A stretch of 64,000 bases of DNA. It comes from Escherichia coli 042. GTDB taxonomy: Bacteria > Pseudomonadota > Gammaproteobacteria > Enterobacterales > Enterobacteriaceae. The first letter of the stretch is position 1. Every line of letters begins with the position of its first letter. The position numbers and the translations under genes were made by a program. This document shows positions 14,258-41,225 of this stretch, piece after piece. The stretch lies in NCBI RefSeq assembly GCF_000027125.1, contig NC_017626.1, one strand, 5' to 3'. The notes beneath the pieces are model-generated. The model was given only the letters and a program-made list of their open reading frames with translations, did no database searches and was not told the origin of the DNA.

Positions 14258-14425
14258 CATGCCGGAGGCGACGCTGCGCGTCTTGTCCGGCCCACGAAAA
14301 TGTAGGTCGGATAAGGCGTTTACGCCGCATCCGACATTCGGCGCACCATGCCGGAGGCGACGCTTTGCGTCTTGTCCGGCCTACGAGAATCCAGGTCGGG
14401 TAAGGCGGAGCCGCTCTCCGGCAAA
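14258..14425. repeat. REP/BIME-type extragenic palindromic repeats, two near-identical units
   Basis: Unit catgccggaggcgacgct[g/t]cgcgtcttgtccggcc... occurs twice, plus gccgcatccgacattcggcg; typical E. coli REP sequence. Confidence 0.8.
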
Positions 14426-37201: not shown

Positions 37202-37274
37202 GAAAGACGCGCATTTGTTATCATCATCCCTGAATTCAGAGATGAAATTTTGGCCACTCACGAGTGGCCTTTTT
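37202..37274 (+). ncRNA. micA: sRNA MicA (SraD), a sigma-E-dependent Hfq-binding antisense regulator of outer-membrane protein mRNAs
   Basis: GAAAGACGCGCATTTGTTATCATCATCCCTGAATTCAGAGATGAAATTTTGGCCACTCACGAGTGGCCTTTTT recognised; terminal hairpin ggccactc/gagtggcc plus T-run; lies in the luxS-gshA intergenic region. Confidence 0.9.
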
Positions 37275-39903: not shown

Positions 39904-40046
39904 GGTCTTCTCGCAAGTCGAAAAATATGACGCTACTTTAGCGTAATTGCTTGATTTTGTCGCTGATGGAGAAGGAGAAGAAAATTCAGGAAATGGATAA
40001 AGTAGTTATTTAGAAATGAGATATTTTTGAAGGAAATTTTTTGGAG

Positions 40047-40182
40047 AATATGGGCATCCGGGAGGATGACTCACTGGCGTTCGCCCTTCAGGCCGTTGCT
40101 GGCGCAACGTTATCCACCCAGGTGCTGGTGGTTATTACCACCATCTCTTCCATACTTTCATTGCTGAAAGTTACGGAGAATA
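40047..40182 (-). repeat. Long spacer element copy A: degenerate 3'-end fragment of tRNA-Arg (gggcatccgggaggatg) plus a ~116-bp structured element
   Basis: Aligns along its length with element copy B (40603-40737), with scattered substitutions. Confidence 0.7.
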
Positions 40183-40259
40183 TGGTGCATCCGGGAGGAT
40201 TCGAACCTCCGACCGCTCGGTTCGTAGCCGAGTACTCTATCCAGCTGAGCTACGGATGC
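40183..40259 (-). tRNA. tRNA-Arg (anticodon ACG), 77 nt
   Basis: Reverse complement GCATCCGTAGCTCAGCTGGATAGAGTACTCGGCTACGAACCGAGCGGTCGGAGGTTCGAATCCTCCCGGATGCACCA. Confidence 0.93.
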
Positions 40260-40322
40260 ATCGGGAAAATTTATTTTACTGCTGATATTGATATCGCTAC
40301 TAAAGCCATATCAAGTAAGAGA

Positions 40323-40399
40323 TGGTGCATCCGGGAGGATTCGAACCTCCGACCGCTCGGTTCGTAGCCGAGTACTCTATCCAGCTGAGCTACGGATGC
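40323..40399 (-). tRNA. tRNA-Arg (anticodon ACG), 77 nt
   Basis: Identical to the other tRNA-Arg copies; 63-bp short spacer before it. Confidence 0.93.
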
Positions 40400-40461
40400 A
40401 TCGGGAAATTTATTTTACTGCTGATATTGATACCGCTACTAAAGCCATATCAAGTAAGAGA

Positions 40462-40538
40462 TGGTGCATCCGGGAGGATTCGAACCTCCGACCGCTCGGT
40501 TCGTAGCCGAGTACTCTATCCAGCTGAGCTACGGATGC
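40462..40538 (-). tRNA. tRNA-Arg (anticodon ACG), 77 nt
   Basis: Identical copy; 62-bp short spacer before it. Confidence 0.93.
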
Positions 40539-40602
40539 ATCGGGAAACTTACTTTACTGCAGATTTTTTGATACCGCTACTAAAGCCGTATCAAGTAAGA
40601 GA

Positions 40603-40737
40603 TGGTGCATCCGGGAGGATTACTCGCCTTGCGGCTCGCCCTTCGGGCCGTTGCTAAAGCAACGTTATCCTCCCTGGTGCCTGCGGTTATTACCGCCACC
40701 TCTTCCATACCTTCATCGCTAAAGGTTACGGAGAATA
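40603..40737 (-). repeat. Long spacer element copy B: 19-nt duplicate of the tRNA-Arg 3' end (40603-40621) plus a ~116-bp structured element
   Basis: tggtgcatccgggaggatt equals the first 19 nt of each tRNA footprint. The element contains the palindromes cgttgct-aa-agcaacg and gcgg-ttatta-ccgc. Confidence 0.75.
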
Positions 40738-40814
40738 TGGTGCATCCGGGAGGATTCGAACCTCCGACCGCTCGGTTCGTAGCCGAGTACTCTATCCAGC
40801 TGAGCTACGGATGC
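40738..40814 (-). tRNA. argV: tRNA-Arg (anticodon ACG), 77 nt; the copy adjacent to serV
   Basis: Identical copy, 3 bp from tRNA-Ser. Confidence 0.9.
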
Positions 40815-40817
40815 AAA

Positions 40818-40910
40818 TGGCGGTGAGGCGGGGATTCGAACCCCGGATGCAGCTTTTGACCGCATACTCCCTTAGCAGGGGAGCGCCTTCAGCCTCTCGG
40901 CCACCTCACC
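40818..40910 (-). tRNA. serV: tRNA-Ser (anticodon GCU), 93 nt with long variable arm
   Basis: Reverse complement GGTGAGGTGGCCGAGAGGCTGAAGGCGCTCCCCTGCTAAGGGAGTATGCGGTCAAAAGCTGCATCCGGGGTTCGAATCCCCGCCTCACCGCCA. Confidence 0.92.
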
Positions 40911-41225
40911 ACACGCCTCTTACGAGTGCTTCGAAGAACTTGTTTATCGCTCATCGTCGCTGCGTGGCGCACATATTACTTTCTGAGACTTATAAGTCAA
41001 ACAATTTTTCCCACACTTTTATCGTTTGCACACTTCACGCTCAATTAGTCTGTAAAAACGTCAAAAAGAGTGTTTTATCAACAGAAAAACGGAGGTCTGT
41101 CAGATAGCAGTAATGCAAAAAAATGGAGACTTAAGTTGAATGAACGGGAGTAAAGCGAAAAGACAATGGAGTGAAGAAGAAATTTTGAGGGTGCGTCTCA
41201 CCGATAAAGATGAGACGCGGAAAGA

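Follow-up and report, generated by a model that had tools for sequence, protein, structure and literature searches.

The 64,000-nt stretch of Escherichia coli 042 analyzed here (NC_017626.1; hereafter the window) carries a tRNA operon that begins with the equivalent of serV and continues with four tRNA-Arg(ACG) genes, from the argV to the argQ position, all of them on the minus strand (Table 1). Calls with ARAGORN and Rfam recovered each of these genes, and the four tRNA-Arg(ACG) genes have the same sequence, as had been read from the letters alone. In this operon, a tRNA-linked repeat (TLR) is present once in the long spacer (here copy B, equivalent to raV) and once as the 3′ trailer (copy A, equivalent to raQ), while the raZ position is empty. 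The TLR family has already been described, and the module in the window is not new. What we add is a fold supported by covariation, a contrast in conservation between its main domain (domain 3) and its surroundings, and the exact presence or absence of the element at each spacer position.

The array and its two tRNA-linked repeats

The spacers between the tRNA-Arg genes measure 199, 62, and 63 nt in transcription order. The first is made up of a 116-nt element, a 19-mer, and a 64-nt short-type spacer. An earlier sequence-only reading of this DNA had recognized the element and the 19-nt tRNA end as the parts of the long spacer, both of which stand, but it had left out the 64-nt short-type sequence. 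It had also placed copy A upstream of the first tRNA; because the genes lie on the minus strand, copy A is in fact the 3′ trailer after the last one. Copy B and copy A begin at the base directly after tRNA-Arg nos. 1 and 4, respectively. A covariance model (R1) built from 141 homologues of the arg-operon element matches just two places in the window, namely copy B (141.8 bits, E = 5e-34) and copy A (111.7 bits). These agree with each other at 113 of 135 positions. Copy B is identical to the K-12 copy after argV at 131 of 135 positions (97%), and copy A to the K-12 trailer copy at 118 of 133 (89%).

The 19-mer AATCCTCCCGGATGCACCA occurs exactly five times in the 64 kb, four times in the tRNAs and once at the end of copy B, against a chance expectation of 0.02. 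The element of copy B is consequently bracketed by 19-bp direct repeats (40738–40756 and 40603–40621). In copy A, the tRNA-like end is degenerate (CAUCCUCCCGGAUGCCCA / CATCCTCCCGGATGCCCA) and arm 3 of the fold is altered. Past the pseudo-end of the repeat comes UCUCUUACUUGAU, just as it does past the real tRNAs.

These features place the window copies among the TLRs, which were first seen by Egan and Landy in 1978 and catalogued by Rudd in 1999, according to Stenum et al. (2021, PMC8144298). [quoted passage not shown] From the strain-table names in that paper, the K-12 copies in the arg operon are raV, raZ, and raQ. The window copies share their locus and K-12 synteny, their site directly 3′ of a stable-RNA gene (here tRNA-Arg), the 18–19-nt end hallmark (19/19 in copy B), and homology to other TLRs. 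They differ from the K-12 set in that no copy follows the third tRNA-Arg and in that the trailer copy, at 89% identity, has a degenerate CCA end.

By sequence and covariance-model comparison, TLRs are also distant paralogues of the tyrT RtT repeat (RtT/rttR, the 178-bp tyrT-tyrV repeats). A scan at Rfam gathering thresholds gave no match for the arg copies, and a permissive scan with RF00391 (RtT) scored copy B at 29.2–33.2 bits and copy A at 21.5 bits, against a gathering score of 45. Homologues in other genera reached 34–41.5 bits, still below that score. In the other direction, R1 matches all four K-12 tyrT RtT units at 28–30 bits (E ~1e-6), so that each covariance model detects the other family. 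The arg and tyr repeats have in common a three-hairpin core, A[A/G]CGUUGC..GCAACG[G/A]CCCGAAGGGCGA..GAGUAAUCC, including the GAGUAAUCC junction. The Rfam RtT consensus runs AaCGucGC..GCgaCGgCCCGaAGggCGAgG..CGAgUaAUCC and then into the tRNA-Tyr end; in the arg element, this core leads into the tRNA-Arg end instead. Both also have a closing helix in which the copied tRNA end takes part, re-matched to the host tRNA: GGGGAAGGAU with AUCCUUCCCC in the tyr repeats, and GGGAGGAU with AUCCUCCC in the arg repeats. The latter pair is the counterpart of the outer helix GgGaaGG with CCuuCcC in the RF00391 consensus structure.

The two loci are also built alike, with a tRNA, a repeat, a tRNA, and then tandem repeats. 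In K-12, the tyrT order is tyrV, RtT, tyrT, RtT, RtT, RtT, with the final 19 nt of tRNA-Tyr at the end of every 178-nt unit. The arg copies lack the two hairpins inside the RtT closing helix (GAGAAC..GGUUCGA and CUCGAGCG..), which explains their score below the Rfam threshold, and they instead carry two unrelated hairpins upstream of the closing helix. Their ends match tRNA-Arg rather than tRNA-Tyr. All four K-12 tyr units are annotated in RefSeq as “RtT sRNA, processed from tyrT transcript,” whereas the arg copies are annotated in none of the RefSeq records inspected. A practical point for genome annotation is that arg copies fall below the RtT threshold and go unlabeled in such records. Literature searches on argVYZQ, the argZ/argQ spacers, and rttR turned up nothing on the arg spacers. 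The tyrT locus too appears to vary in repeat content: in E. coli SK1144, two tRNA-Tyr genes lie 33 nt apart, followed by desaturase genes, with no RtT annotated.

The predicted transcript covers both copies. Promoter-like and terminator-like sites bracket the entire array, and since the terminator-like site lies downstream of the trailer copy, copy A falls inside that transcript. The serV equivalent is separated from the first tRNA-Arg by 3 nt. The array is bordered by csrA on the serV side and yqaB on the other, with alaS and recA also flanking; the order csrA, serV, arg array, yqaB is the same as in K-12. These flanking genes, along with 100% identity to several strains over 3 kb, mark the window as E. 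coli.

Table 1. Features of the serV-argV..Q operon in the window, in transcription order (MFE, minimum free energy fold)
Feature	Position	Strand	Basis or remark
Promoter-like site (TTGACT, 16-nt spacer, TAATAT)	40973-41000	-	Consensus scan only; ~60 nt upstream of serV
tRNA-Ser(GCT), serV equivalent, first operon gene	40818-40910	-	ARAGORN; Rfam tRNA 56.8 bits
tRNA-Arg(ACG) no. 1, argV position	40738-40814	-	ARAGORN, Rfam
TLR copy B, raV equivalent: 116-nt element + exact 19-nt tRNA-Arg 3′ end	40603-40737	-	Covariance model R1
Hairpin H1, copy B	40700-40735	-	MFE; sequence varies by genus, inner stem covaries
Hairpin H2, copy B (GCGG-UAAUAA-CCGC)	40683-40696	-	
Closing-helix 5′ strand GCACCAGGGAGGAU, complementary to tRNA-like 3′ end	40667-40680	-	Nearly invariant between genera
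Arm 1 (CGUUGC-UUUA-GCAACG), common with tyrT RtT repeats	40649-40664	-	
Arm 2 (GCCC-GAA-GGGC)	40638-40648	-	Stem almost invariant
Arm 3 (GCC-GCAA-GGC)	40626-40635	-	
Exact copy of tRNA-Arg positions 58-76 (AAUCCUCCCGGAUGCACCA); closing-helix 3′ strand + ACCA overhang	40603-40621	-	
ITS1 distal short-type spacer, 64 nt	40539-40602	-	
tRNA-Arg(ACG) no. 2	40462-40538	-	ARAGORN, Rfam
ITS2 short spacer, 62 nt, without TLR	40400-40461	-	
tRNA-Arg(ACG) no. 3	40323-40399	-	ARAGORN, Rfam
ITS3 short spacer, 63 nt, without TLR (raZ position empty)	40260-40322	-	
tRNA-Arg(ACG) no. 4, argQ position	40183-40259	-	ARAGORN, Rfam
TLR copy A, raQ equivalent, 3′ trailer copy, 133 nt	40050-40182	-	Covariance model R1
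Terminator-like hairpin + U-run	39930-39944	-	Consensus scan only; ~105 nt past copy A, ahead of yqaB

Presence and absence of the element among strains, genera, and tRNA genes

We compared the array in ten E. coli strains, scoring each spacer as long with the element (L) or short without it (S). The order is L-L-L in 118UI and XH987, L-S-L in K-12 and SMN013SH2, L-S-S in the window and 2012C-4502, S-S-L in SCPM-O-B-8794, and S-S-S in ST131 MB1341. O157 Z1836 has S-S followed by a partial spacer of 102 nt, and 95JB1 has L-L with three tRNAs and no trailer copy. The K-12 spacers of 198, 62, and 198 nt bear out the long-short-long order that had been given for this strain, and because K-12 has a trailer copy too, the real difference between the two is the one copy that the window lacks after the third tRNA-Arg. 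The suspicion that the window array is rearranged relative to K-12 was thus correct, in the sense of a polymorphism common in E. coli.

The spacers themselves reveal how exact these differences are. Each spacer position keeps its own distal signature of 62–64 nt whether it is long or short. The 64-nt distal sequence of the first spacer (ITS1; ITS, internal transcribed spacer) in the window is the whole first spacer in O157 Z1836, ST131 MB1341, and SCPM-O-B-8794. Conversely, ITS2 and ITS3 of 118UI (197 and 198 nt) end in 62 and 63 nt identical to ITS2 and ITS3 of the window, and hence equal the short spacers of the window plus a 135-nt module. Over alaS-recA and in the trailer copy, 118UI and the window do not differ at a single position (100% identity), but their arrays read L-L-L and L-S-S, respectively. 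In 95JB1, the last tRNA is directly joined to the sequence normally found 3′ of the trailer pseudo-end, which is an exact loss of the trailer copy. Together, the position signatures and the 118UI and 95JB1 identities identify the polymorphism as the exact and recent presence or absence of the element plus 19-mer. Such natural strains, differing by exact single copies, offer ready-made near-isogenic comparisons. In a further strain, E. coli IH5 (NZ_CP168269.1), the place of the tRNA array next to yqaB is taken by yjdM and a crfC pseudogene, which hints that the chromosome was rearranged and that one breakpoint lies at the array.

Beyond E. coli, we sampled one genome per bacterial species using the serV/argV junction as the pattern, which is unbiased for the element, and obtained at least 120 loci. 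Among the loci listed, R1 had at least 171 matches in 100 sources, 59 of 76 complete arrays held at least one repeat copy, spacers of ~190–200 nt were mixed with short ones in every order, and 89 of 103 long spacers of other species contained the 19-mer with four or fewer mismatches. Long spacers were seen in Escherichia, Citrobacter, Enterobacter, Klebsiella, Raoultella, Cedecea, Siccibacter, and Franconibacter, as well as in Pluralibacter, Kluyvera, Leclercia, Lelliottia, Trabulsiella, Buttiauxella, and Erwinia. Salmonella has a trailer copy only, and Serratia gave weak matches. Most spacer copies had a tRNA-like end identical at 19/19 positions, and the ends of trailer copies were more degenerate. 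At three loci (L057, L071, and L092), elements stood in tandem with no tRNA between them. Within E. coli, a domain 3 match was found in 5,358 of 5,426 complete genomes, although the best match was only 80%–90% identical in ~1,500 of them; the example we inspected, ST131 MB1341, has the trailer copy alone.

A metagenome scan with the core pattern returned at least 120 loci. Among the matches listed, the core lies 80–165 nt downstream of at least 16 tRNA types (Ser GGA/TGA/GCT/CGA, Gln TTG/CTG, Pro TGG/CGG, Tyr, Asn, Lys, Val, Thr CGT/TGT, and Arg ACG/CCG), and the 19 nt from AATCC on equal the upstream tRNA end at 19/19 positions in 56 of 74 cases, with another 5 cases at 18/19. Among the other mismatched ends, several look like offsets in the call of the tRNA end. 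The 5′ region of these elements pairs better with its own than with a foreign tRNA end (−15.6 vs. −11.8 kcal/mol; Wilcoxon p = 8e-8), clearly so for Gln, Tyr, and some Arg and Val and weakly for Ser, Thr, Lys, and Pro, in a test that cropped part of the arg-type strand. These data extend the tRNA-end hallmark known from K-12 and establish no new principle. At four loci beside Ser, Gln, and Pro tRNAs (L127, L133, L212, and L223), a terminator-like hairpin with a U-run stands between the tRNA and the core, a layout that resembles the published rrnB T1-rrB-T2; these copies would be transcribed by read-through only.

Fold, covariation, and conservation

Copy B has an MFE of −60.3 kcal/mol (z = −5.3 relative to shuffled sequence) and copy A one of −55.0 kcal/mol (z = −5.0). 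The short spacer folds weakly by the same measure (z = −1.45), and z-scores for the element in eight other genera range from −1.8 to −4.7. The MFE structure of copy B consists of hairpins H1 and H2 followed by a 78-nt domain, domain 3, with three small hairpins. In the closing helix of domain 3, GCACCAGGGAGGAU pairs with the copied tRNA end AUCCUCCCGGAUGC, leaving an ACCA overhang. No tRNA is called in the 78-nt domain by either ARAGORN or the Rfam tRNA model, and we rejected the idea of a pseudo-tRNA.

Selection on RNA structure had previously been suggested from paired differences between the two window copies. Only part of that evidence survives inspection: at cgttgc/gcaacg, the stem is invariant and the change lies in the loop, and H2 has one genuine U-A to C-G swap alongside two pair-breaking changes. 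With just one true swap between them, the two copies alone are insufficient to argue for such selection; real covariation emerges only from the comparison of many genomes. We supplied the structure by hand from the copy B fold and tested it on a structure-blind MAFFT alignment of 141 distinct copies, repeating the test on a model-based alignment (141–150 homologues over the two). Standard pairs filled 84.3% of cells in the MAFFT alignment (84%–86% over both alignments), compared to 31%–47% when the partners were slid. The covariation score was 0.176 (0.18–0.20 over both alignments) against at most 0.088 in the controls, and none of 500 shuffles matched the observed pairing and covariation values. 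By this comparison of sequences, covariation supports the predicted fold, in line with the suggestion of selection on structure.

The support is distributed unevenly over the helices. Arm 1 is paired in 99.4% of cells, with GC-to-AU and UA-to-CG swaps in several genera, and H2 shows two-sided changes at five of its five pairs (e.g., AU 65 / GC 51) with 88% of cells paired. In arm 3, the middle pair is GC in 75 copies, CG in 52, and UA in 6, and the outer pair is GC in 112, AU in 21, and GU in 10. Arm 2 has little covariation, and its loop varies in length and sequence. The closing helix is paired in 95% of cells and has three pairs with a double change; most of its changes are from G-C or A-U to G-U, because its 3′ strand is fixed. 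The inner stem of H1 alternates among AU/CG/UG/UA and AU/UA/GU/GC, while the helix as a whole is 66% paired and its outer part is poorly supported. The bases beside arm 1 (alignment columns 80 and 101) covary as A.G in 121 copies or G.A in 12 with few intermediates (Fisher p = 4e-13), and the same alternation is present in the tyrT repeats. This pattern suggests a non-canonical pair at the junction. The homologue alignment contains no conserved unpaired stretch of the element outside small loops and junctions.

Several results temper the case for this fold. The shuffle control overstates significance, as the homologues are phylogenetically related, and pairs with two-sided changes (26–28) are only in slight excess over the slid controls (17–29). 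Of the 141 homologues, only 61% have the closing helix in their MFE structure; in ~39%, the MFE is won by a competing pairing of the element’s first 8 nt (UAUUCUCC, 40730–40737) with GGAGGAUA (40667–40674). G-U and A-C counts in H2 and domain 3 (156 vs. 118) do not identify the structured strand. The competing helix was itself rejected as unsupported, since its cells are 82% paired against 61%–74% when slid and its covariation is 0.132 against 0.128. From the MAFFT alignment, RNAalifold retrieved no more than arm 1 and a portion of arm 3, an outcome explained by the variable 5′ half not being structurally aligned.

Conservation follows the same domains. Over 72 loci, mean identity was 56% for H1 and H2, 85% for the non-tRNA part of domain 3, 94.5% for the tRNA-like end, and 59% for the short spacers. 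Concerted evolution acts inside single genomes and cannot account for slow divergence from genus to genus, so these sequence comparisons indicate that the domain 3 core is under purifying selection. The short spacers have a small hairpin of their own (GAUAUGGCUUUAGUAGCGGUAUC); in an alignment of 49 of them, the stem differs by genus yet stays complementary (e.g., CAGUGUUGCGGCAUGAUGAGUGACAUU), at an overall identity of 59%.

Origin and possible role of the repeat

The explanation that we consider probable, taken as a whole, is that TLR copies come and go in this operon as a mosaic shaped by deletion between 19-bp repeats, are co-transcribed as a folded RNA that would be processed, and may persist as a passenger RNA. 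Loss would occur by exact deletion between the 19-bp direct repeats, through slippage or recombination, and the near-identical tRNA-spacer units would allow gain or shuffling through conversion or unequal exchange; deletion and restoration of the module would then produce the mixture of long and short spacers. From its position in the operon, the module is expected to be co-transcribed with the tRNAs. In the predicted fold, the closing strand GCACCAGGGAGGAU and the copied tRNA end resemble the stack of tRNA acceptor and T-stem, with an ACCA overhang and with three hairpins enclosed. By analogy with rtT and RrB, the tRNA-like terminus and the usual post-tRNA spacer might allow RNase E and 3′ exonucleases to set the end of a released RNA of ~130 nt. 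Stenum et al. (PMC8144298) have proposed the repeated end as an RNase E recognition context, and rtT is released as a discrete stable RNA in tRNA processing, as reported in the literature. Together with the RefSeq description of the homologous tyrT repeat, this makes the processed spacer RNA proposed in the sequence-only reading plausible, and by the same analogy the arg-copy RNA is probably processed from the spacer. Our best guess for a role is that, besides being a passenger, the RNA may sequester the extra tRNA 3′ strand in its closing helix and so spare neighboring pre-tRNAs from misfolding, while the conserved core could serve as a binding platform for a putative partner.

Other observations caution against assigning any essential role. 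The authors of PMC8144298 state that TLRs have no known function, and they constructed a delta-22-TLR strain, with “delta(argY/Z/Q, raQ/Z/V)” listed in the strain table. ST131-type strains have a trailer copy only, and 17 of the 76 species-level arrays among the loci listed are without any copy. Given that strain and these reduced or empty arrays, any function is dispensable. The only phenotype ever claimed for a TLR of a tRNA operon, a 1991 report tying rtT to amino-acid starvation and the stringent response, was retracted in 1994 (PMC8144298). We dropped a stringent-response role, attributed to Bosl and Kersten (1991), because of this retraction. For the arg copies, we found no published Northern blot, RNA-seq, or crosslinking and immunoprecipitation (CLIP) evidence, nor any published Hfq, ProQ, or CsrA binding data. 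Although described in 1978 and catalogued in 1999, TLRs are still without an assigned function, and the comparative data make this question easier to test.

Dispensability, together with the free gain and loss of copies between close strains and a tRNA-like end that is probably homogenized against the adjacent tRNA (spacer copies mostly 19/19, trailers degenerate), is what would be expected of a neutral relic of tandem duplication or unequal crossing-over of tRNA genes that has no RNA role and owes its similarity to concerted evolution only. We judge such a relic improbable, however, because identity across Enterobacterales is 85% for the non-tRNA part of domain 3 but 56%–59% for flanking transcribed spacer, the stems covary, and the same core is kept beside at least 16 other tRNA types. 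The duplicated tRNA end had also been likened to an att-site footprint. The interval from T-loop position 58 to the CCA end is a classical crossover region of tRNA-targeting integrases, and the 19-bp direct repeat spans just this interval, so that an intact tRNA lies on one side of the TLR and a partial 3′ copy on the other, as attL and attR would in an integrative element or a trans-mobilized miniature element. Exact presence and absence, and relatives at 16 tRNA types among the matches listed with ends of 19/19 in 56 of 74 cases and 18/19 in 5, agree with this idea. Yet the element measures just 116 nt, no integrase, recombinase, or mobile-element gene lies nearby (the neighbors are yqaB and csrA), the 19-mer is one half of a helix, in a folded RNA, whose 5′ strand is conserved and co-varies, and TLRs of the same design are also reported 3′ of 5S rRNA genes (PMC8144298). 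Moreover, copies occur in tandem without a tRNA between them, and only 4 of the 27,177 places matching domain 3 are on plasmids. We therefore regard site-specific integration as very unlikely. More broadly, one could imagine the TLR/RtT core as an autonomous structured RNA module that colonized the 3′ flanks of many stable-RNA genes across diverse bacteria, copying the last 18–19 nt of its host gene and evolving a complementary 5′ strand into a tRNA-minihelix mimic. We consider this unlikely; if true, the core would be a mobile element parasitic on processing, or else a conserved module that regulates the tRNA 3′-end maturation machinery or acts as its decoy.

Location in a tRNA operon spacer and a stable fold would also fit a spacer-derived regulatory RNA acting by base pairing or protein titration. 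3′ETS-leuZ and ITS-metZW, for instance, were reportedly described by Lalaouna and colleagues in 2015 as small RNA sponges derived from tRNA spacers. These sponges are likewise by-products of tRNA operon processing from transcribed spacers, but they use short single-stranded seeds for RyhB or RybB on Hfq, whereas a TLR is highly structured, repeated, and a copy of a tRNA 3′ end. Closer relatives are RrA, RrB, and RrF, found 3′ of the 5S genes of rrnA, rrnB, and rrnD and the only characterized TLRs; by description, they belong to the same family (Rudd; Stenum et al.), copy the 3′ end of the upstream stable-RNA gene, and are processed from the stable-RNA operon transcript (PMC8144298). These RNAs bind Hfq and CsrA in vitro, and the arg operon lies directly downstream of csrA. 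By description, though, they differ in sitting between two terminators and in their GGA motifs, and the 19 TLRs of tRNA operons are predicted non-binders of CsrA, with scores below 0.01 (PMC8144298). In the arg copies, H1 and H2 have no conserved primary sequence for a seed (56% identity), the conserved part is mainly helical, and, as noted, we found no published Hfq, ProQ, or CsrA binding data. A regulatory RNA of this type is thus quite improbable in our estimation. A small arginine-rich protein, like the Tpr frame of the tyrT repeats, might be sought in the sense-strand ATG frames of the two copies (42 codons at 40580–40708 in copy B and 21 codons at 40088–40153 in copy A, both on the minus strand). 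An in-frame ATG that stays open through the element is found in only 47 of 138 homologues, an in-frame stop interrupts the core in 34 of 138, two K-12 copies have ATC in place of ATG, and inspection of the sequences shows a frame different from the tpr frame. We rejected the coding hypothesis on these counts and give it next to no credence.

The observation behind the sequence-only reading, then, is confirmed, and its interpretation is partly supported: a structured, probably processed RNA and recombination within the array are borne out, the latter by the comparison of array architecture across strains that it had proposed.

Some other features of the window deserve mention. Opposite each tRNA-Arg (40183–40814, plus strand), Rfam gave sub-threshold Plastid-ycf2 matches (33.4 bits; gathering score 65.7), which we take as a tRNA-like artifact of that model. 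A solitary tRNA-Met(CAT) gene lies at 5995–6070 on the minus strand. On the plus strand, a match to naRNA4/CssrE (RF02564, a nucleoid-associated non-coding RNA family) at 14305–14381 scored 70.4 bits against a gathering score of 59.5, and the MicA small RNA (RF00078) was matched at 37202–37273 with 83.9 bits, which fits the luxS/gshA neighborhood of E. coli.

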